A stretch of 64,000 nucleotides of DNA from Candidatus Magasanikbacteria bacterium RIFOXYC2_FULL_42_28 (GCA_001784435.1 MFQZ01000001.1:16032-80031), one strand, 5' to 3'; counted from the first letter of the stretch, positions 1,735 to 40,370 are shown. A program made the numbers and translations. The notes: generated from the sequence alone by a model not told the origin.

Positions 1735-1869
1735 AATTTATAATTAAAGATTGAAGAATAAAGAATAAAGAATAAATAATTAACTAATTCACTAATTTCT
1801 AATTCGCTAATATAATGCCAAAGTAATTTAAGAATTTATAATTTTATTAGTTAATTAGTGAATTAGGAC

Positions 1870-3297
1870 TTAGCAAATTTTCGCAAACAATCGTTTTAAC
1901 AAATCTCTATCAACTGCGCCAAAAACAAATAATAAAATACCATATATAATCGCCACCAACGGAATAACAATCATAAAACTAATTTTGACGATTGATAAAT
2001 AGGCGATAACACCCATAATTACCGCCGGAATAAATGTCCGCCATAAATATTTCCACAATTCCGCGTAAGGTAAAATTATTTTTTTAGCGACGAGAATGGT
2101 ACCGGCGATTGCTAAAAACCCATTGCCGATAACGGCCGAAATCGCCGCGCCGACAATTCCCCAAATTGGAATCAAAATCAAATTTGAGATAACGCTCACA
2201 GTCAAAGCGGCTAATAACAAACCGGTTTGAGTTTTTTGTCTATCAGTGGCGTTTAAGGTGGCGCCGGTAACAAAACCCACATAGCCGAATATCAAACTTA
2301 GCAACAAAATTCTAAGCACCAGAACCGACGGTGCGTATTGCGCTCCGTAAATTGTGGTCAAGGTCGGGTAAGCCACGGCCGACAAGCCGAACGCCAAGGG
2401 AAAAACTACGGCGAATAAATAGCGCGTGGCTTTTACAAATAATTCGCCAACGCGGGCGCGATCAGTAATAAAAAATGAACTCATCGCCGGATAAACACTC
2501 GCCGTCAGGGCCGCCGGAATAAATTGGAACGCAAAAGTTATTTTAAAGGGCACGCTCCAATAACCCAACTCTGTCGGCGATAATAATTTTGACATTATAA
2601 TTGAATCAGAATAAGAATATAAACGCGTAATTAATCCCGCGATTGCAAACGGCCAAGCCATTACTAAAAATTTTTGTAATAATCCAAAATCAATTTTAGG
2701 AATAACTGGCGCGCCTAAAATTCTCCTTGCCATGAAGCCGGCATAAATTGCATTTACGCCAGCTGGTATTGTGTACGCCAAGATTAACCAATACAACGGA
2801 GCACCTAAATACAAGGCAACGCCGCCGATTATAGCGGTCAAAAATTGCGAACCGATTAAACCGGCGCCTTCAAACAACAAATTTTTCTTGGCGCGTAAAA
2901 TTCCATAAAAAGTGGCGTGAATATTATCAAAAAACATCGTGATGCCGGAAAGATAAATCATTGATTTTGTCAGCGCGTCGTAACCAAGCAAATTCGCGCA
3001 AATTATCAAAACTCCGTAAGAAATTACACCAAAAATTAATTTTGTGCCGAGAACGGTATTTAAATACGCGGAAGAATTAGTGTCAAAACGCGCGGCTTCG
3101 CGCGTCAAAACCGGACCCAAACCAAAATCGGCCACTACCGTAAAAATCGTGGTAAAAGCAATGGCAAAAAAATACACGCCGGTATTTTCCACACCAATCG
3201 CTCGCGCGATAAAAATAAAATAAACAAAAGAAATCGCCCGCTGTAAAACCGCGGCCACGGTTAAAAAGGTAGTATTTTGTGAAACTGAATAGGACAT
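1870..3297 (-). CDS. MOP-superfamily flippase (MurJ/Wzx-like polysaccharide or lipid II flippase)
   Basis: 475-aa polytopic membrane protein with the hydrophobic profile of the polysaccharide-biosynthesis/MurJ family; adjacent to two FemAB-family genes. Confidence 0.6.
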   Translation of the reverse strand: MSYSVSQNTTFLTVAAVLQRAISFVYFIFIARAIGVENTGVYFFAIAFTTIFTVVADFGLGPVLTREAARFDTNSSAYLNTVLGTKLIFGVISYGVLIICANLLGYDALTKSMIYLSGITMFFDNIHATFYGILRAKKNLLFEGAGLIGSQFLTAIIGGVALYLGAPLYWLILAYTIPAGVNAIYAGFMARRILGAPVIPKIDFGLLQKFLVMAWPFAIAGLITRLYSYSDSIIMSKLLSPTELGYWSVPFKITFAFQFIPAALTASVYPAMSSFFITDRARVGELFVKATRYLFAVVFPLAFGLSAVAYPTLTTIYGAQYAPSVLVLRILLLSLIFGYVGFVTGATLNATDRQKTQTGLLLAALTVSVISNLILIPIWGIVGAAISAVIGNGFLAIAGTILVAKKIILPYAELWKYLWRTFIPAVIMGVIAYLSIVKISFMIVIPLVAIIYGILLFVFGAVDRDLLKRLFAKIC

Positions 3298-11753: not shown

Positions 11754-11812
11754 ATTTTAATTTCAGATTTTAGATTTATGATTTCAGATTTGTATCTAAA
11801 TTATGCAAGTAT

Positions 11813-23964: not shown

Positions 23965-25209
23965 TTATTCTTTTCTAAGCGCCGTCACCGGATCCAAACC
24001 GGCGGCTTTCTTTGCTGGGTAAAGGCCAAAAAATAATCCAATGACCGCCGAAAACCCAACGGCCAAAATTATTGATTGAATGGGGATAACATACGCCCAG
24101 ACGAAGTTATAATAGACCGCAATCAAATAAATTACAAGGGCAAAAATCGCGCCTAAAATTATTCCCACGAGTCCCCCGCCCAAAGTTAAAAGCACTGCCT
24201 CACTTAAAAATTGTCGCAAAATATCTGAGTTAGTCGCCCCTAAGGCCTTCCTCAAACCAATTTCAAAAGTCCGTTCGGTAACCGACACATACATTATATT
24301 CATAATCCCCACCCCACCAACCAGAAGCGACACGCACACGAGCGCCACGAGCAACATCGTAATTCCGTTCACGACCGAGCCCAAAATATCCGCCGCCTCT
24401 TTCATCGTGTTAACGGCAAAATCATCTTTATTCGGATCAGTAATATCGTGATTGTCGCGAATAATTTCTTCCAAATCCGTAACGGTCGCTGCCATGGCCG
24501 AGCGGTCTTTTACTTTGGCAATTATAGAGCGAAAATAATCCACGCCTAAAATTTTCTTTTGCAAAGTTGTTACCGGCACAATGGCCATATTGTCCATATC
24601 CATCCCAAAAGACGCGCCCCGCTTAACAGTAACGCCCAACACCCGAAACGCTTTTCCCTTCATATATATAGTTTGACCCACCGCATCGCTGTCGCCAAAT
24701 AATTCCTCTTTTAACACTGGGCCCAAAACAGCGACTTGCGCGAGCGACTCCTCTTCTTCTTTCGTAAACATTCTCCCGTCCGACAAATCCAATTTTTCCA
24801 CTTCTTGTAAATTATATCCTTCGCCCATGAGTAGTGAAATTTTGGTTTGGTCTTCGTATTTAATCGCCGCCTGCCCCATTGCCCAACCATACGCCGCAAC
24901 AATATTGTGGTGATTACGCACATCTTCCAAATCATGATTTTTTAAAGTGGTAATATTAATACCGGTGCTCTGACCAAAAGCATTATCACTGGAAGTTTTT
25001 TTCGTGGCCGGCACTTTTACTTCAATGCTAATCGTGTCCGGCGAAAAAGTTTCCAATTGCGACATTACCATTCGATCCAATCCCCGCCCGGCGGCCATAA
25101 TGGCGATGACGACCGCGATGCCGATGCTTAAACCCAAAACAGTCAAGACGGTTCTGGTCTTTTGAGATTTAAGGGCAGTGATAGCTAATTTGATGGGAGT
25201 AAAATTCAT
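23965..25209 (-). CDS. ABC transporter permease, MacB/FtsX-like (paralog 1)
   Basis: 414 aa; N-terminal TM, large periplasmic domain, C-terminal FtsX 3-TM bundle; tandem paralog at 25670-26914. Confidence 0.75.
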   Translation of the reverse strand: MNFTPIKLAITALKSQKTRTVLTVLGLSIGIAVVIAIMAAGRGLDRMVMSQLETFSPDTISIEVKVPATKKTSSDNAFGQSTGINITTLKNHDLEDVRNHHNIVAAYGWAMGQAAIKYEDQTKISLLMGEGYNLQEVEKLDLSDGRMFTKEEEESLAQVAVLGPVLKEELFGDSDAVGQTIYMKGKAFRVLGVTVKRGASFGMDMDNMAIVPVTTLQKKILGVDYFRSIIAKVKDRSAMAATVTDLEEIIRDNHDITDPNKDDFAVNTMKEAADILGSVVNGITMLLVALVCVSLLVGGVGIMNIMYVSVTERTFEIGLRKALGATNSDILRQFLSEAVLLTLGGGLVGIILGAIFALVIYLIAVYYNFVWAYVIPIQSIILAVGFSAVIGLFFGLYPAKKAAGLDPVTALRKE

Positions 25210-25212
25210 GTT

Positions 25213-25672
25213 TAAACTCTAAATACTAAACCCTAAATTCTAAACAAACCCAAAATACAAATAATAAATGTTCAAATTTTCGAAATAATTGCGCCAAATA
25301 TTTTCATAAGCTGTGTTGCTTCATCAATTAAAATTTTTCTTTCCGCTTCGTGTATTGTTAACGCGTCCACTAATCTCAACCACAAAACTGATTCTTTTGC
25401 TTCTTTGCGACAAATCTTAATTCTCATTACAAAATCCTTTTTACTTAACGACTCACTTGCTTCAATATAATTCGCAGCAACCGAACCTGACGAACGAATT
25501 AATTGCTTGGCATATTCTATATTTGATATATTTCTTGGTAATTTTTTTACAAATAATTTTGTATTATAAGCAAATTTAAATATTCTATCGTGTAAATCAA
25601 ACACCGGTTTTGGATTTTGTATTTCAGACATTTGAACTTGTTTAGAATTTAGGGTTTAGAGTTTAGTATTTA
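25213..25672. mobile_element. Miniature element: four-helix-bundle protein gene flanked by 35-bp imperfect inverted repeats built from TTTAG-type units
   Basis: Left taaactctaaatactaaaccctaaattctaaacaa (25213-25247) vs reverse complement of right (25638-25672) taaatactaaactctaaaccctaaattctaaacaa; sits exactly between stop of one permease paralog and start of the other. Confidence 0.5.
25272..25631 (-). CDS. Four-helix-bundle protein (23S rRNA intervening-sequence protein family)
   Basis: 119 aa all-helical protein, A..YIEA..S.S...F....I...EA.ES.YWL motif characteristic of this family. Confidence 0.65.
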   Translation of the reverse strand: MSEIQNPKPVFDLHDRIFKFAYNTKLFVKKLPRNISNIEYAKQLIRSSGSVAANYIEASESLSKKDFVMRIKICRKEAKESVLWLRLVDALTIHEAERKILIDEATQLMKIFGAIISKI

Positions 25673-26914
25673 TTCGTACCTAAGCGCTTCAATAGGATTT
25701 AATTTTGCCGCCTTCCGCGCCGGCACAATCCCAAACAACATTCCGATCCCAACCGATACCACACAACCCAAGACAATCGACGGGATACTAATAATAAAAT
25801 CCCAGTCATAGCCAAGCGAACGCACCACCAGTGAAATTATATAAGAAATAAAAATACCAGAAATAATTCCGATCACGCCACCAATAAAAGTTATCATCAC
25901 GGTCTCAACTAAAAATTGTTCAATAATATTACGATTGGTCGCCCCAACGGCTTTGCGCAAACCAATTTCACGCGTGCGTTCTTGCACCGCCGCGAGCATG
26001 ATATTCATAATCCCAACGCCACCCACGACAAGCGCAATCGCCGCCACGGCTGCTAAAAATAATTTTAAAGCGTTGGTAATTTGCGTAATTGCTTCCAAAC
26101 CCTGCGCCATTGATCGCACCGAAAAATCATCCTCTTCCGGCCGGTCAATTTTGTGGCGTTCGCGTAAAAATATCCGCGCGTCTTCCATCGCCGCGTCAAC
26201 ATTGTCCGGATTATCCACTTTTAAACGCGCGAAGCTAATATAATCAATGCCCAATAATAATTTTTGCGCGGTATTAAGTGGCACAAAAATTTGGTCATCT
26301 TGATTTTGAAAACCAGACACACCGCGTGTTTTCATCACACCAATAACATTAAACGAGGATTTTTTTATTTTAATTTGCGCGCCCACCGGATCTTCTTCGC
26401 CAAATAATTCTTTGGCCACCGTACTGCCTAACACGGCCACGCGCGCCATACTACGCTCTTCTTCTTCGGTAAAAAATCTCCCATTTTCAACTTTGGCATT
26501 TTCCACTTCCACAATAGACGCGTTAACGCCGGTAAAACTGGTGTCGGTTTGATTGTCACCCCAAACAATCGTATCAGTGCCTTTGACATAGCCGGTGCCG
26601 GCAACAACGTGCGCCGAACCGCTCCGAATTAATTCGCGGATATCACTGTCTTTCAAAGTCGTAACCACAATTCCCATCGCTGACGCCGGTGGGCCTTTTT
26701 CATCAGACGCGCCCGGAAGCACACCAATTAAATCCGAACCCAAACTTTTTACTTGATTTAAAATCATCCCCTGCGCGCCCGCACCGGCTGACAAAACAAT
26801 TATCACCGACATCACACCAATTATCACCCCAAGCATAGTTAAAAATGACCGAATTTTATTCCGGCCCAATACTCGCCAGATGGCGTGGATGTTGTCGAGG
26901 AGGTGCATAATCAC
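25670..26914 (-). CDS. ABC transporter permease, MacB/FtsX-like (paralog 2)
   Basis: 414 aa; same architecture as 23965-25209. Confidence 0.75.
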   Translation of the reverse strand: MIMHLLDNIHAIWRVLGRNKIRSFLTMLGVIIGVMSVIIVLSAGAGAQGMILNQVKSLGSDLIGVLPGASDEKGPPASAMGIVVTTLKDSDIRELIRSGSAHVVAGTGYVKGTDTIVWGDNQTDTSFTGVNASIVEVENAKVENGRFFTEEEERSMARVAVLGSTVAKELFGEEDPVGAQIKIKKSSFNVIGVMKTRGVSGFQNQDDQIFVPLNTAQKLLLGIDYISFARLKVDNPDNVDAAMEDARIFLRERHKIDRPEEDDFSVRSMAQGLEAITQITNALKLFLAAVAAIALVVGGVGIMNIMLAAVQERTREIGLRKAVGATNRNIIEQFLVETVMITFIGGVIGIISGIFISYIISLVVRSLGYDWDFIISIPSIVLGCVVSVGIGMLFGIVPARKAAKLNPIEALRYE

Positions 26915-27633
26915 TTTTTCAAATCCGTCGCGCCGGCCGCAATTTGGCGATTAGTTATCAGCGCGTCTTCCACAATTTCGCCATCTTTTAATTTAATCGC
27001 CCGCTTGGCGTGAGCGGCGGTGTATTGTTCGTGCGTGACCAAAATTATGGTGTTGCCTTTATCGTTTAAATCCTGCAAAATTTTCATCACTTGTAAACCG
27101 GATTTAGAATCCAAATTACCGGTCGGTTCATCGGCAAAAATTACGGATGGTTCGTTGACAAGCGCGCGCGCGATGGCCACGCGTTGTTTTTCACCGCCGG
27201 ATAATTGATTGGTAAAATATTCTAAACGATGTGCCAAACCAACCGACTCTAACGCCGCGGTCGCTTTTTGTTTGCGTTCACTTTCGGAATATTTAGCATA
27301 CACGAGCGGTAACATTACATTTTCCAATACGGTCGTGCGGGGCAATAAATTAAACGCTTGAAAAACAAAACCAACCGACTTACTTCGCATCTGCGCTAAT
27401 TCGTCATCGGTTAAACTACTAACATCACGCCCATCAAAAATATATTTTCCCGATGATAATTTATCCAAAAAACCCAAAATGTGCATCAGGGTGGATTTAC
27501 CCGAGCCCGACGGCCCCATAATCGCCACAAACTCCCCGCGCTCAATTTGAAAATTCAAACCGGCCAAAACAGGCGTTACCACGCCTTCGTTTTCGTATTG
27601 CTTTTTTAGGTTTTGGATTTGGATAAGTGACAT
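26911..27633 (-). CDS. ABC transporter ATP-binding protein (MacB/LolD type)
   Basis: Walker A GPSGSGKST, signature LSGGEKQRVAIARAL, Walker B IIFADEPTGNLD. Confidence 0.9.
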   Translation of the reverse strand: MSLIQIQNLKKQYENEGVVTPVLAGLNFQIERGEFVAIMGPSGSGKSTLMHILGFLDKLSSGKYIFDGRDVSSLTDDELAQMRSKSVGFVFQAFNLLPRTTVLENVMLPLVYAKYSESERKQKATAALESVGLAHRLEYFTNQLSGGEKQRVAIARALVNEPSVIFADEPTGNLDSKSGLQVMKILQDLNDKGNTIILVTHEQYTAAHAKRAIKLKDGEIVEDALITNRQIAAGATDLKK

Positions 27634-27639
27634 ATTTTT

Positions 27640-28596
27640 TTACATTATTTTTTTTCTTGTCACTTTGTATTTTACAGTGTTGTCTATGGATGGCAGCTTG
27701 ATATCTACGCCACTTTTATTTTCGCTTTTAACATGAACAACTTCTGATAATATTGGTAGATGTGCCTCTAAAAATTTAAATTTGCCTGGATGGATTCGTT
27801 TAAGTACCTCTGGATCCAAAAGGTAAACCGCCACACTGTCAGATAAATCTTCCGCTGGATCAAATGCTGCATAATCAGATACACAGGGTTGACTGGTAGT
27901 TTTTTGGATGGCGCGCCCACCAGGAGCAATTACTGCCTGCTCAACTTTTTTCCAACCAAATTCATTTTCCCAATCAGCCAAAAGTTTATCCCCAAAAACA
28001 TGTCCAATTTCGTGAGCAACCGTCGCCTCAAAACTTGAGGGAAGCCCGGTGCGGTGTTTATCTTGTCTCAAGCCATGTGGGTAAATTTGTATTGCTTGAT
28101 AATTATTCCTTAATGTTGCCTCACCACTTGTCAATTCCCCAGTGAGCTCATTTTGTTTGTCTGTTTTTCCTATAAATATGTATTTTACTTTTTTGATTAT
28201 TTCTCCATTATTTATTCTAGCGGCAGTCATGATAATATTTACTATTTGTGCTTTGTGCTGATCAGATAGGGACTCGCCAAAATTATATACATCAACTTCT
28301 ATGGTGTCGGCTTCTCCAATACGAGCTGTAATTGTTGTCTGTTCTTTAGGTAGACCTAGTTCATTTTTTATCTTATCACTTAACCACCAGCACTCCCCAG
28401 CCAGCTTAACCTTTAACGCTGTTATGATCGCCCTTTCCAACTCGTCATCTGATAAACTTGGTCTTATATTTATTACAACTGCATTAGGGTCATCATCATC
28501 ACAAACAAATCTTAAATCATCAAAATTTTGATATTCTTTCGGCCGGTATCCTTTTGCCTCACTTGTATTTATCATAGATAAAAAATAAATTGCCAA
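27640..28596 (-). CDS. Putative zinc metallopeptidase (HExxH)
   Basis: TVAHEIGHVFGDKL zincin motif; embedded in ABC exporter operon. Confidence 0.45.
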   Translation of the reverse strand: MAIYFLSMINTSEAKGYRPKEYQNFDDLRFVCDDDDPNAVVINIRPSLSDDELERAIITALKVKLAGECWWLSDKIKNELGLPKEQTTITARIGEADTIEVDVYNFGESLSDQHKAQIVNIIMTAARINNGEIIKKVKYIFIGKTDKQNELTGELTSGEATLRNNYQAIQIYPHGLRQDKHRTGLPSSFEATVAHEIGHVFGDKLLADWENEFGWKKVEQAVIAPGGRAIQKTTSQPCVSDYAAFDPAEDLSDSVAVYLLDPEVLKRIHPGKFKFLEAHLPILSEVVHVKSENKSGVDIKLPSIDNTVKYKVTRKKIM

Positions 28597-28602
28597 AAAA
28601 CC

Positions 28603-30366
28603 TCACGGCGCTTTCACACTCACCACCACATCTTGCCCATCACTTAACCCCAACAAAATTTCTGTTTTACCGCCATCGGCTTTTAACCCAATTTCAACAG
28701 TCACTTCGCTCACCTCGCCATTATTTAACACTTTTACTTTTTTCTCACCATTGGATTTAATCGCGCGGCTCGGTACAAACAAAACATTTTCTTTTTTGTC
28801 AGTAGTAATTTTTACATTCGCGGTCATTCCCGCCTTGACCGCCTTAGTTCCGACAAACGGAACGGCGGCGGTCCCCATTATATTATCGCTCGCATCCAAC
28901 GTTACCGTCACTTTGTAATAAACCACATCTTGAATAACCGTTGATGCTGGCTCCAGATTGATAATCTTTCCGGAAAATTTAACATCGTTTCCAAACGCAT
29001 CCAAAGTAATTTCCGCGTTGTCATTTAATTGTAATTTGGAAATATCGGTCTCCGGAATATCCACTTCAATTTGGTAATTAGGCGCGAGCAGTTGAATCAT
29101 CGTATCCGCGCCGGTAATAAATTCACCTTTTTTCTTATTAATTTTCGTCACGATGCCAGCAATCGGCGCGCGAATAATTGCTTTATCGCGACTGGCGACA
29201 GCGGACGAAAGCGCGGCTCGAAGCGCGGCCACATCCACTTCGCGTGGTGGATTTATTTTGCTGTCATAATTCGCTTGCGCTTGATCATACGCCGCTTGTT
29301 TATATGCCACCGAATTTATCGCATTGGCTTTAGCAGTTGCCAAATCTTTCACCGCTTTATCATAAGCAACCAAATAAGTGGAATAACTATTTTTTGCGTC
29401 CAACAATGCCTGCTTTTTGGCAATAGTGTTAGTATATTGAGTGTTAACGGCCGTGCGCGTCGCGTCAATGGTGGTTTTGTGGCCATCTAAAATTGTTTGA
29501 GTAAGCGCGCCCAAAGGTGGCGTAAAATTCAAAACATCGCCAACGAGTGCCAACAAAGAAATGTCCTTGGCCAAAGCATCTTCGGCTAAAAGTAACGCCG
29601 CGTCAATATCAGCATGAGCCGACACGGTTGTTAAAACCAAAATTTTATTTTTCACATTATCACGGCCTTGACGAGCAACAGCGTAAGCGGTTTTGGCAAA
29701 TGATAATTTTGAACTATCCAAGACCGACAAATAACTTTCAAAACTATCATTACCCAAAGTATTGTCAATACCCAAAATATTATCGGATTGCGTTAAACCA
29801 TTTTCAATGTTAGACAGCGCGGTTTGAAGCGACGCCACCGCTCCAGCATAAGCGCTATCCACAATTTGATTATTGTCACCACCCTCGACTAATTTCAAAT
29901 TATTCTGCGCGGTATCTACCACTGCTTGTGCCGCCGTAACGCTCGCCTCGGCATCGGTTTTACTTTGCTCATAAGCCGACCGCGCGCTATCCACCGCCGC
30001 TTGATAATATTTTTTATCCGCGTCCGACAAACCCACTAATTTTTGATTTAAATTCGCGCTCGCCTGCGCCACGCCGGCGTTTAATTCGGCCAAACGCAAA
30101 TTAGCGAGCATTGTTCCCACTTTCACAATATCACCCTCTTGAACATTCGCCGCATCCACAATTCCGCCAATTTCAAATTTCAAAGCCAAATCCGTAGCCG
30201 ATTCCACTTTACCGGTGGCTTCCACGGTTTGCTCCAAATTACCGCGTTCTACTTTGACGGTTTCGTATTGAGGCACGGCGGATTGCTTGGAACGATATAT
30301 AAAAAATCCTACAACCAAAACTAAAGTTATCGCACCAATAATTATATATTTACTTTTTTTAGTCAT
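28603..30366 (-). CDS. HlyD/MacA-family periplasmic adaptor with very long Ala/Gln-rich coiled coil
   Basis: N-terminal TM anchor, biotinyl/lipoyl-like half-motifs (GKVESATDLALKFEIGGIV...GDIVKVGTMLANL), extended coiled coil, C-terminal beta-barrel. Confidence 0.7.
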   Translation of the reverse strand: MTKKSKYIIIGAITLVLVVGFFIYRSKQSAVPQYETVKVERGNLEQTVEATGKVESATDLALKFEIGGIVDAANVQEGDIVKVGTMLANLRLAELNAGVAQASANLNQKLVGLSDADKKYYQAAVDSARSAYEQSKTDAEASVTAAQAVVDTAQNNLKLVEGGDNNQIVDSAYAGAVASLQTALSNIENGLTQSDNILGIDNTLGNDSFESYLSVLDSSKLSFAKTAYAVARQGRDNVKNKILVLTTVSAHADIDAALLLAEDALAKDISLLALVGDVLNFTPPLGALTQTILDGHKTTIDATRTAVNTQYTNTIAKKQALLDAKNSYSTYLVAYDKAVKDLATAKANAINSVAYKQAAYDQAQANYDSKINPPREVDVAALRAALSSAVASRDKAIIRAPIAGIVTKINKKKGEFITGADTMIQLLAPNYQIEVDIPETDISKLQLNDNAEITLDAFGNDVKFSGKIINLEPASTVIQDVVYYKVTVTLDASDNIMGTAAVPFVGTKAVKAGMTANVKITTDKKENVLFVPSRAIKSNGEKKVKVLNNGEVSEVTVEIGLKADGGKTEILLGLSDGQDVVVSVKAP

Positions 30367-30415
30367 AAAATTTTACATTTTAATTTGTCATTTTGATTTT
30401 TGATATTTACATTTT

Positions 30416-31909
30416 TCATTTTAACATCTCCCACTCCTGCGCATTTTTTAAATATTCACTTTTAATCTTCTCGAAATATTCAGCGACAGCATCGTGCTCA
30501 TTCGGCACTTTTCCATCCAAAATTGCCTCTTCCAGCGCGTCTTTAATTCTGCCAACGGTCGGTCCGGGTTTTAATTTACACGCAATCATAATTTCATCAC
30601 CACGAAACGGCGACTGGAACGCGCGCAATTTATCTTTTTCAGATAACTCGTCAATTTTTGCGCGCAGATGAATATAATTGCCTTGACGCTTGGTTAATTT
30701 ATGGGGATTACCAGTCGTAATATCCGACACCCCTAAAATCAATAAATCTTCTAGTTCTTCATCCAAATTTACCACAAGGCGCCGCACAGCCGAGTCGGAA
30801 ATACCATCATCCATCAGCGCGATGGGCTGTAAATGCCAACGCACCAATTTGGCAAGATATTTTGTCAAATCAGTAGAAAAACGCAAACGCCGCGCCAAAC
30901 CATGGACTAATTTTTTACCAAAATGATCATGCTGATAAAAAGTCCAACCAATGCCTTTGACAAATTTTTTCGTACCCGGTTTACCAATGTCGTGCAAAAG
31001 CCCGGCCAAACGCAAATTAACTTTTTCCGAACGCTCGGCAATATTGTCCACTACTTTAAAAGTATGAGTTAAAATATTTTTGTGTAGATGGCCAAAAACT
31101 TCTTCCACGCCGTCAAGCACGGCCACTTCAGGCAAAACCAAATCCAACAGACGAGTTTGAAACATTAACGCCAAACACACCGACGGCTGGCGCACGGCTA
31201 ACATTTTTAATAATTCTTCTTGGACGCGTTCAGCCGAAATTATTTTTAGTCGCGCGCGATTTTCAAAAATTGATTTCAAAGTTTTACTTTCAATCCCAAA
31301 TTCCAATTGTCCGGCAAACCTGATAGCGCGCATCATACGCAGTGGGTCATCAGAAAATGTCTCATCCGGCGCGAGCGGTGTGCGTAAAATTTTGTCTGCC
31401 AAATCTTTTTGGCCGTTGAATGGGTCAATTATATTTTTCTTAATGGTAGCGACGGTAGGCGCTTTGGCCACCGCAAAAACTTTCACCGGCACGGCCATGG
31501 CATTCACCGTAAAATCACGCCGTTTTAAATCCTCTGCCAACGTGGCTGTCTCCACTTTTGGTTTACGCGAAGTAGCATGATAACTTTCACTGCGCGCGCC
31601 GGCAAATTCCAAAACAATTTGATTTTCGCCATCGCCCAAACAATAACGCGCCGTATCAAAATCCGGAAATTCCACCAAGCTTCCACCGGCGTCGCCTTCG
31701 GCTATGCCAGTCAAGCTCTCCTGCTTAAATTCTTCATCAAATTTTTTCGCAAATTCCAAACCACTGCCTTCTACCACAAAATCAATGTCTTTTTTTTGCT
31801 CTCGGCCTAATAAAAAATCGCGCACAAAACCGCCCACCACATAAATCTGGGTTTTGTTTTGTTTGGCAACTTTATCAATTATTTTAAAGATTTTTGTGAT
31901 ATCAGACAT
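30416..31909 (-). CDS. cca: CCA tRNA nucleotidyltransferase / polyA polymerase family with HD domain
   Basis: Pol-beta NT motif YVVGGFVRDFLLG...DIDFVV; HD domain HLHKN...H...D; supplied ORF extends to 31942 (MEIGNLDFEIN) but those codons are repeat-motif sequence, likely start is MSDITKIF at 31909. Confidence 0.8.
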   Translation of the reverse strand: MSDITKIFKIIDKVAKQNKTQIYVVGGFVRDFLLGREQKKDIDFVVEGSGLEFAKKFDEEFKQESLTGIAEGDAGGSLVEFPDFDTARYCLGDGENQIVLEFAGARSESYHATSRKPKVETATLAEDLKRRDFTVNAMAVPVKVFAVAKAPTVATIKKNIIDPFNGQKDLADKILRTPLAPDETFSDDPLRMMRAIRFAGQLEFGIESKTLKSIFENRARLKIISAERVQEELLKMLAVRQPSVCLALMFQTRLLDLVLPEVAVLDGVEEVFGHLHKNILTHTFKVVDNIAERSEKVNLRLAGLLHDIGKPGTKKFVKGIGWTFYQHDHFGKKLVHGLARRLRFSTDLTKYLAKLVRWHLQPIALMDDGISDSAVRRLVVNLDEELEDLLILGVSDITTGNPHKLTKRQGNYIHLRAKIDELSEKDKLRAFQSPFRGDEIMIACKLKPGPTVGRIKDALEEAILDGKVPNEHDAVAEYFEKIKSEYLKNAQEWEMLK

Positions 31910-31910
31910 A

Positions 31911-32025
31911 TTAATTTCAAAATCCAAATTTCCAATTTCCAAAATAATGTCAAAGCCAAAATGTCAAATTTGATATTTTGATTTTGGATTTGATTTGACA
32001 TTGGAAATTGGAAATTTGACATTAC
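31911..32025. repeat. ~115-bp AT-rich foldback (inverted pair of the TTTGACATTGGAAATTTGGATTTTGAAATTAA motif) between pilT and cca
   Basis: Left arm ttaatttcaaaatccaaatttccaa...aatgtcaaagcc is reverse complement of right arm ...tttgacattggaaattggaaatttgacatt; solo copies at 839-866 and 60246-60288. Confidence 0.55.
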
Positions 32026-39950: not shown

Positions 39951-40023
39951 CGGGCTATAGCGCAGTTGGTAGCGCGCGTGGTTCGGGACCACGAGGCCGT
40001 GGGTTCAAATCCCACTAGCCCGA
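39951..40023 (+). tRNA. tRNA-Pro (anticodon CGG)
   Basis: Manual cloverleaf: acceptor CGGGCUA/UAGCCCG, D-arm GCGC-AGUUGGUA-GCGC, anticodon stem CGUGG/CCACG loop UUCGGGA, T-arm GUGGGUUCAAAUCCCAC. Confidence 0.8.
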
Positions 40024-40028
40024 CACAT

Positions 40029-40370
40029 TAAAAAAGAAAGCAAATGCTTTCTTTTTTAATGTGTCGCAGTCACTGAACGACGTGCGAACCTTTTTTGAAA
40101 AAAATATTATTGGCCAATAATCGAGTTTCCGCGCCCCGTCCGGCGGACGGGGCAACAAACAAGTTTGTTTTTTTCTGAAAGAAAAAGCGGAAACCGTGAA
40201 CCCGTTTGCCCCGACCAAGTCGTGGCAAAATTGTTCGCGACAAGCCCCCCCCCTGTCCGTTTGTGTTGAAAATTACTTTTTGCCTACCACCGCCAGAGGC
40301 GGGCAGGCGTATCGGGCGGGCGTGTCTGAGTGGCTGGTGGGTGGATATTAGTATTTAAATACTAATACGC
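40029..40370. repeat. Left copy of ~340-bp inverted repeat (IR-L) bounding accessory island; begins with hairpin aaaaaagaaagcaaatgctttctttttt
   Basis: ~88% identical to reverse complement of 54624-54968; contains conserved hairpins (ccccgtcc-ggcg-ggacgggg; ccgcc-aga-ggcgg) and ends inward with palindrome tattagtatttaaatactaata. Confidence 0.85.

Follow-up and report, generated by a model that had tools for sequence, protein, structure and literature searches.

The 64,000-nucleotide (nt) stretch of DNA from Candidatus Magasanikbacteria RIFOXYC2_FULL_42_28 analysed here (the window) contains, at positions 25213-25672, a 460-bp insert with a four-helix-bundle gene between two transporter genes, and this raises the question of what the insert is and how it came to lie there. 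The original prediction suggested that it could be a small mobile element inserted into the intergenic junction with defined ends. Empty orthologous junctions support the insertion, and conserved arms at other loci, together with the empty junctions and with derivatives lacking the open reading frame (ORF), support the mobility. The 460-bp unit is probably one copy of a widespread, horizontally spread selfish cassette, the counterpart in messenger RNA (mRNA) operons of the S23p-encoding intervening sequence (IVS) of 23S ribosomal RNA (rRNA).

All genes of the region lie on the minus strand, in the order HlyD-type adaptor, 318-amino-acid (aa) protein, ATP-binding cassette (ABC) ATPase, permease 1, 119-aa ORF and permease 2. 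The cassette and its two host genes are built as follows.

25670-26914, minus strand: permease 1, MacB-type (MacB_PCD + FtsX), the upstream host gene
25638-25672, minus strand: 5' arm, five heptamers TAAATAC TAAACTC TAAACCC TAAATTC TAAACAA; 35.2 bits with a matrix from other genomes
25632-25637, minus strand: spacer GTTCAA, 6 nt from the array to the ATG, belonging to the conserved inner module AAACAA-nTYCAA-ATG
25272-25631, minus strand: four-helix-bundle gene, 119 aa, S23p / 23S_rRNA_IVP / Avd-like (PF05635, TIGR02436)
25248-25271, minus strand: 3' spacer, 24 nt, ACATTTATTATTTGTATTTTGGGT, along which a weaker AA-periodic complementarity to the start-codon region continues
25213-25247, minus strand: 3' arm TTGTTTA GAATTTA GGGTTTA GTATTTA GAGTTTA, the inverted five-heptamer array; 35.2 bits
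25210-25212, minus strand: AAC, 3 nt from the element end to the permease 2 ATG
23965-25209, minus strand: permease 2, MacB-type (MacB_PCD + FtsX), the downstream host gene

The reverse complement of the 3' arm reads TAAACTC TAAATAC TAAACCC TAAATTC TAAACAA, and the arms are complementary at 31 of 35 positions, with units 1 and 2 swapped between them; the inverted repeat reaches 42 nt if weaker pairing is allowed. The arm units are thus heptamers of the form TAAAnnC, in agreement with the original description of 35-bp inverted repeats made of TTTAG-like units, which is how they appear on the plus strand. The gene assignment also holds: PF05635 and TIGR02436 identify a four-helix-bundle protein, and MacB_PCD and FtsX identify the MacB-like permeases on either side. 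The repeats had been said to abut the permease stop codon and to end 4 nt before the next start codon. Contact with the stop codon there is, in the form of an overlap, since the TAA of permease 1 at 25670-25672 is the first three bases of the 5' arm; the gap to the ATG of permease 2 (25207-25209) is 3 nt.

Because the genome has 40% G+C and several short periodic repeats in its intergenic DNA, such a structure could be suspected to be a chance low-complexity inverted repeat around an ordinary gene in AT-rich intergenic DNA. The pattern TAAANNCTAAANNCTAAANNC, with at most one mismatch, occurs six times in the window against 0.02 expected, and all six occurrences fall within the two arms. The alignment of one arm to the other scores 50, a value that shuffled flanks (mean 16.4, maximum 21) never reach, and the matrix that gives each arm 35.2 bits, built solely from the elements of other genomes, finds no match in simulated sequence. 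Together with the recurrence of the same structure at about 70 independent loci, these counts refute a chance origin, whose probability is negligible. Neither a second four-helix-bundle gene nor a further copy of the exact array is present in the 64-kb window. On the coding strand there are no promoter-like or terminator-like sites in or beside the arms, and the idea of an independent gene with its own promoter and terminator was rejected, since no consensus promoter and no G+C-rich hairpin followed by a T-run is found at the arms. The predicted fold of the whole cassette has the two arms closed together, while no structure is predicted for the 5' arm by itself.

The same package recurs across bacterial phyla. 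Relatives of the gene, 55-68% identical, were sampled with their neighbourhoods at 82 loci for array counts and at 81 loci for the matrix scan, in the Candidate Phyla Radiation (CPR), Desulfobacterota, Planctomycetota, Verrucomicrobiota, Bacteroidota and others. In the first four neighbourhoods the gene is co-directional within unrelated operons, for example purK -> gene -> purM, and is framed by inverted heptamer arrays of different sequence. The check proposed with the original prediction was whether other four-helix-bundle genes carry the same terminal repeats, and at 72 of the 82 loci at least four heptamer units stand on both sides of the gene. What is shared is a pair of conserved flanking arms that follow a family-wide repeat pattern; the notion of terminal repeats with an element-specific sequence does not stand. 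Arrays most often have exactly five units, on the left at 45 loci and on the right at 50. Their inner unit reads xAAACAA or xAAATAA, most loci have 6 nt between the array and the ATG, and the inverted array begins 20-36 nt past the stop codon. Information content falls to zero exactly 35 nt outward of the inner unit in both arms. The elements have a median length of 474 nt, ranging from 444 to 570. Three flavours of array are distinguished by the base before AAA (CTAAA, CGAAA and CCAAA), and the flavour is nearly always common to both arms of an element (T-T in 23, G-G in 18 and C-C in 11). In the matrix scan of 81 loci, 63 have the sense array upstream of the ATG and 67 have the inverted array downstream of the stop codon, compared with 10 matches in 390 kb of control DNA.

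At least 595 loci with the gene are present among GTDB species representatives, in many phyla, and 5006 clusters at 50% identity match the protein family (E <= 0.001). Libraries of defence-system and phage proteins gave no match. Four distant members on plasmids of cyanobacteria, Chloroflexota and Bacteroidota are also flanked by heptamers, made of other units. In Nostoc and Anabaena plasmids (L179 and L180), a distant gene lies between cas1 and cas2 on the opposite strand, with heptamer arrays of AAGTAAA type. PF05635 genes in cas loci have been described along with the family motif RxxxSxxxNxxE (PMC3936711), and such reports may be explained as insertions and not as cas functions.

Comparison of orthologous junctions reveals the site without the cassette. 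Empty sites between orthologous permease genes, the second check proposed, were sought by a metagenome scan with permease 1 and by look-ups of individual proteins. None of 80 loci related to permease 1 holds a four-helix-bundle gene; the permease1-permease2 pair is kept in about 28 of them, and the gap is at most 17 nt (0-17) in at least 13. The closest junction, whose permeases are 70% and 67% identical in aa sequence, is empty and reads TACGAA TAA gacgt ATG AAT. Two further Magasanikbacteria lineages, found through permease 2, have GAA TAA ataatc ATG AATTTTACTCC or an 8-nt overlap, and the junction in the window reads TACGAA [TAAATAC ... GAGTTTA] AAC ATG AATTTTACTCC. One genome with an empty junction has a cassette of its own about 10 kb away, between genes for a GT4 glycosyltransferase and a DUF192 protein (GT4 -> four-helix-bundle gene -> DUF192), indicating that related genomes carry the cassette at different sites. 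Counted together, about 30 orthologous permease1-permease2 junctions, among them those of other Magasanikbacteria, are without the cassette, which at this junction is a lineage-specific insertion. The closest relative of permease 2 (L183, 92% identical) was rejected as an empty site, its upstream gene being a different one.

Other small inverted repeats occupy the orthologous permease junction in L110 (3749-3840), L121 (3770-3930), L114, L124, L100 and L113. They use different heptamers, for example TTCGTAA TCCGTAA CTAGTAA CCAGTAA with their complement, and repeats of the type GTCATTCCG...GGAATGAC are present instead at the junctions of L099 and L114. The permease1-permease2 junction seems to collect small hairpin inserts repeatedly.

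The copies are fitted closely to host transcription units. Of 75 assessable loci, 56 have both neighbours co-directional with the gene, and about 90% have the upstream one so. In 23 of 40 cases the upstream gene stops between -7 and +10 nt relative to the left boundary, seven of them using the element's first TAA as stop codon, and in about 18 of 40 the downstream start codon is found 0-12 nt past the right boundary. The sole ORF in the element is the 119-aa four-helix bundle, and the neighbours are unrelated housekeeping genes. Among the closest pairs of copies, some come from different phyla; one such pair, from Bacteroidales and Delongbacteria, is 89% identical in aa and 90% in nt sequence. 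The protein is under purifying selection, as third codon positions differ at 53% of identical residues at a median aa identity of 60%. Each exact protein maps to a single site, and the two copies in one metagenome-assembled genome are 80% and 61% identical.

Derivatives without the gene are also found. Five ORF-less versions (L026 99-238, L067 3525-3717, L008 1963-2088, L075 4398-4523 and L170 2223-2402) still have the arms of five units, the AAACAA-ATTCAA-ATG module and the 3' spacer, and have lost the gene body. Since both ends and the modules are retained, these are internal-deletion derivatives. They occur in genomes that also hold gene-bearing copies, as expected for a pair of autonomous and miniature elements with the same ends. 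In L170 2223-2402, which has no flanking duplication, the two 35-nt arms are perfectly complementary, and the GAAGCAC unit, as a rule restricted to the 5' arm, is present in both. This suggests recopying of an arm from its partner, by which arms can be homogenised. The window contains at least one ORF-less hairpin of the same general kind.

31911-32021, minus strand: ORF-less hairpin, 111 nt, heptamers TGTCAAA TTTCCAA TTTCCAA TGTCAAA ... and their complements (CCAAA/TCAAA-type)

It fills the junction between a T2SSE ATPase gene (TAA 32022-32024) and a gene for a poly(A) polymerase/CCA-adding enzyme (ATG 31908-31910), beginning at the upstream TAA and ending 5 nt before the next ATG. Its predicted free energy is -35.7 kcal/mol (z -4.35, with none of 200 shuffles as stable), and it matches the matrix with 25.1 bits. 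In Rfam, the only matches obtained were sub-threshold look-alikes of plant microRNAs (miRNA) for the ORF-less hairpin.

Looser arrays are present elsewhere in the window. An ORF-less inverted repeat at about 1775-1869 (minus strand), with CTAATTn units of 7-8 nt followed by TTTATTC three times, lies between the stop codon of the gene at 1870-3297 and the start codon of the gene at 871-1734; its predicted fold is no significant improvement on shuffled sequence (z -0.74). At 11758-11792 (minus strand), heptamers of left-arm type, ACAAATC TGAAATC ATAAATC TAAAATC TGAAATT, are followed by AAAAT and the ATG of an ordinary gene. This array scores 22.2 bits, has no inverted partner and may be either a relic left arm or a host leader of a similar kind. 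At 30367-30423 (minus strand), about eight tandem nnnAAAA-type units (TGAAAAA TGTAAAT ATCAAAA ATCAAAA TGACAAA ...) form a direct array only, filling the interval from the stop codon of the upstream gene to the ATG of the HlyD-type adaptor gene.

These unpartnered arrays bear on the possibility that nothing here is mobile, the arrays being host regulatory leaders or 3' elements for translation control or mRNA stability, and the gene a regulated accessory gene that is gained and lost. Left-arm-like arrays before ordinary genes, as at 11758-11792 and 30367-30423, would agree with this, as would the direct heptamer repeats at start codons in Beggiatoaceae, cyanobacteria and Bacteroidetes, for which a translational role has been suggested (PMC4679880), and neither duplications nor identical copies mark a transposition. 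However, the same bounded package is found between unrelated host genes in many phyla, its conservation stops sharply at 35 nt, and it includes the host stop codon. In addition, the orthologous junctions are empty, the internal-deletion derivatives retain both ends, and the arrays are strongly concentrated at a single gene family. A purely regulatory origin is therefore decidedly unlikely.

If the unit is a selfish cassette of IVS type, its arms might be expected to act as a stem in RNA, and part of the evidence agrees. The arm duplex has a mean energy of about -25 kcal/mol, compared with -12 for mismatched flavours and -9 for shuffled arms. In 47 elements, 79.9% of the arm pairs are standard pairs, a count that beats its shuffles. 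The flavour positions form U-A, G-C or C-G pairs in 79-96% of elements, and three-way covariation among these pairs is seen at the four flavour columns and, as C/T, in the inner unit (column 33), and nowhere else.

The protein matches PF05635 with 46.7 bits (cut-off 33.8, E 4e-12) and TIGR02436 with 65.7 bits (cut-off 24), and carries the motif GxxRxxxSxxxNxxE, whose residues R46, S50, N54 and E57 are invariant or nearly so in 38 relatives. The AlphaFold model (predicted local distance difference test score, pLDDT, 92.4) has helices at 14-29, 35-59, 64-87 and 92-118. Its best fold matches are 2RLD and 2GSC, S23-family proteins with chains A-E each, followed by Avd in the complex of reverse transcriptase (RT) and RNA from a diversity-generating retroelement (DGR) (8UB7) and by free Avd (4DWL). 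PF05635 proteins have been recognised as relatives of Avd (PMC10053308), and Xcc0516 is, as far as the mention of it in a reference cited in PMC3936711 goes, built from 'five four-helix bundles'. A homopentamer matched to exactly five heptamers would be the most economical reading of these numbers. Protein identity is 63.5% within a flavour and 60.9% between flavours, a difference that none of 2000 permutations reaches, and the nearest neighbour has the same flavour in 30 of 44 cases against 35% expected. The residues most associated with flavour, 109, 113 and 117, share one face of helix 4; position 117 is Arg in the G flavour and Glu in the other two. This association fits recognition of the heptamers by the protein.

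Several observations weigh against a horizontally spread, IVS-like cassette that works through its stem. Over 15 variable positions, there is no element-specific compensation between arms (401 for an element's own arms, 397 +/- 10 for same-flavour arms of other elements), and the duplex energy of an element's own arms is no better than that with same-flavour arms of other elements. No enrichment of G-U wobble pairs is seen in the arms of the 47 elements, and the two arms differ systematically, GCAC units favouring the 5' arm and TATC units the 3' arm, which produces a recurrent internal mismatch. The association of protein with flavour could be plain shared ancestry. No rRNA or Rfam family was detected in the cassette region or at 20 related loci, and the link to the IVS therefore lies in architecture and protein family rather than in a common site. 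As for mobility, no relatives were found in the INPHARED and IMG/VR phage collections, and the plasmid matches are distant only (33-40% identical). Neither the element nor its flanks encode a transposase, nuclease or RT, and the sample contains no near-identical copies at different sites. Nothing consistent by way of target-site duplication is seen at 47 anchored boundaries, where the TAAA-like overlap at about one third is explained by the array pattern itself, and no duplication surrounds the perfectly matching arms of L170.

The absence of compensation beyond flavour, together with the arm asymmetry, indicates that the inverted repeat consists of two opposed copies of a family-wide repeat pattern. 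A stem between the arms is possible and may be needed, but selection does not maintain the pairing base by base. Arm asymmetry and orientation bias together point to a strand-specific role of the arms, on RNA or on single-stranded DNA.

The same observations bear on a classical miniature transposon acting at the DNA level, in which a transposase encoded at another locus would bind the arms, as terminal inverted repeats, in double-stranded DNA, the gene would be cargo or an accessory factor, and the ORF-less copies would be miniature inverted-repeat transposable elements. Defined inverted ends common to ORF-bearing and ORF-less copies, presence and absence at orthologous sites, the patchy cross-phylum distribution and the few copies with perfectly matching arms, such as L170, are all in line with it. 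However, it does not account for the lack of a target-site duplication even at the perfect-arm copy, the strong orientation bias with host transcription or the systematic difference between the arms, and neither an associated transposase in the neighbourhoods inspected nor bursts of near-identical copies were found. Moreover, sites spaced by 7 bp would rotate around B-form DNA and would fit a ring-shaped pentamer poorly. A transposon of this kind is unlikely. The Correia/NEMIS elements of Neisseria and the ERIC elements of enterobacteria are likewise small inverted-repeat elements in transcribed intergenic DNA, with mRNA hairpins that RNase III can cleave, and no transposase is known for them. 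They are non-coding, occur in either orientation and have an element-specific sequence, and Correia duplicates a TA target, whereas the cassette has a protein-coding master copy, an orientation bias, no detectable duplication and heptamer arrays.

The kinship with Avd raises a further alternative, in which the transcript or an excised RNA would be bound by the Avd-like pentamer and copied by an RT in trans, and the arrays would be added or repaired by template slippage as in telomeres. The arms have telomere polarity, with a C-rich strand at the 5' end and a G-rich one at the 3' end, and TAAACCC/TTTAGGG is among their units. The fold similarity to Avd in the DGR RT-RNA complex (8UB7, 4DWL; PMC10053308), the sense orientation in host transcripts, the lack of target-site duplication and the arm homogenisation in some copies would agree as well. 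However, the genes called within 10 kb of the cassette include no RT domain, nor do those of four other neighbourhoods, and the heptamer consensus is position-specific (unit 5 is always AAACAA/AAATAA, and unit 3 differs by arm), which argues for inheritance rather than stochastic addition. Such a retro-mobile origin is very unlikely. The same lack of an RT domain led to the rejection of the cassette as a DGR. Avd of DGRs (4DWL, 8UB7) and the cassette protein share the four-helix-bundle fold and superfamily, and Avd is a homopentamer that binds nucleic acid and whose gene is part of the RNA acted on, features that the cassette protein may have in common with it. The cassette protein is similar at the fold level only, no RT, template repeat or variable repeat lies near its gene, and Avd genes have not been reported with heptamer-array frames.

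The closest parallel to the cassette remains the IVS. S23p-encoding IVSs in Leptospira, Coxiella burnetii and others have long been suspected to be mobile, and the Coxiella IVS is 428-444 nt long, has a 28-bp inverted-repeat stem cut by RNase III, and carries its S23p ORF after 3-4 tandem heptamers just before the ATG, with no good ribosome-binding site (PMC4990558). The cassettes resemble IVSs in size (444-570 nt; IVS 428-760 nt), in inverted repeats at the ends that could pair into a long stem enclosing the ORF, in the PF05635 ORF itself, and in tandem heptamers placed directly before the ATG with a poor or absent Shine-Dalgarno sequence. Both have ORF-less versions and are suspected of mobility, and neither has a promoter of its own, the IVS being transcribed within its host RNA as the cassette presumably is. 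They differ in site, which is helix 25 or 45 of 23S rRNA for the IVS and a junction of protein genes in an mRNA operon for the cassette. Each cassette arm consists of exactly five heptamers and comes in one of three interchangeable flavours; no such regularity has been described for the IVS. Purifying selection acts on the cassette ORF, in contrast to the decaying ORF of Coxiella. [quoted passage not shown]

Tandem heptamers are also known as the TAACTGA repeats of Beggiatoaceae, cyanobacteria and Bacteroidetes and as the cyanobacterial STRR (PMC4679880). They share with the cassette arms the 7-nt period, with 2 to 6 copies per array, and are intergenic, mostly forward and end beside a start codon, some overlapping the end of the upstream ORF. 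Their distribution is patchy across phyla and horizontal spread has been suggested; the cyanobacterial PF05635 genes of L179 and L180 are flanked by heptamers of AAGTAAA type. Unlike the cassette arms, they are almost only direct arrays, with a single inverted case in a Beggiatoa genome, and have no associated protein gene. No literature was found that links STRR/TAACTGA repeats to four-helix-bundle genes or describes the five-heptamer package, its flavours, the operon-junction habit or the ORF-less derivatives, most subscription journals being outside the coverage of the search.

The cassette has entered the junction of two translationally coupled permease genes and now supplies the stop codon of the upstream one. 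Taken as an IVS-like selfish unit, and having no promoter or terminator of its own, it would be transcribed by read-through as part of the host operon, and this would explain why about 90% of copies are aligned with the upstream gene. In the transcript, the G-poor, unstructured 5' array could pair with the U/G-rich 3' array into an imperfect stem of 35-50 bp, which would enclose the ORF with its start codon and bring the host stop and start codons together again. By analogy with the rRNA IVS, such a stem would be a likely RNase III substrate. The encoded protein may be the element's own factor, given that solved relatives are homopentamers and that the DGR homologue Avd is an RNA-binding partner of the RT; the pentamer would read the five heptamers on a single strand, one per subunit.

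A wider hypothesis, which is tentative, makes PF05635 genes the autonomous core of mobile elements that form a pan-bacterial class and have no recognisable transposase, nuclease or RT. The pentamer would read five heptamers, one per subunit, on single-stranded RNA or DNA, recognising the flavour through a stripe of residues on helix 4, and its complex with them would act together with the hairpin of the two arrays to bring about copying into gene junctions and rRNA loops; rRNA IVSs, STRR and many orphan intergenic heptamer repeats would then be members or relics of the class.

The remaining genes of the host operon lie upstream of permease 1.

28603-30366, minus strand: HlyD-type adaptor gene
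27640-28596, minus strand: 318-aa protein gene
26911-27633, minus strand: ABC ATPase gene

The 318-aa protein has a HEIGH zinc-protease-like motif and a weak Peptidase_Mx match. In the related Magasanikbacteria L186 and L187 the adaptor gene is directly followed by the ATPase gene, without the 318-aa gene, indicating that the latter is a second lineage-specific addition to the operon. At 40021-40066 there is also a perfect palindrome of 22 nt with a 2-nt loop (CGACACATTAAAAAAGAAAGCA / TGCTTTCTTTTTTAATGTGTCG), which has no relation to the heptamer arrays and may be a terminator.

The function of S23p and related four-helix-bundle proteins and the origin of the rRNA IVS have been open since 1993. 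These genes are scattered in all kinds of operons, including cas and restriction-modification loci, and their presence there has invited functional guesses. Where they co-occur with defence genes, the cassette may simply have inserted there, and intergenic heptamer-array hairpins could be annotated as its relics. The cassette is best regarded as an IVS-type element of mRNA operons, with a substantial chance of being the visible part of an undescribed mobile class, and the bounded five-heptamer package, its status as an insertion and its ORF-less derivatives make the question of function experimentally testable.

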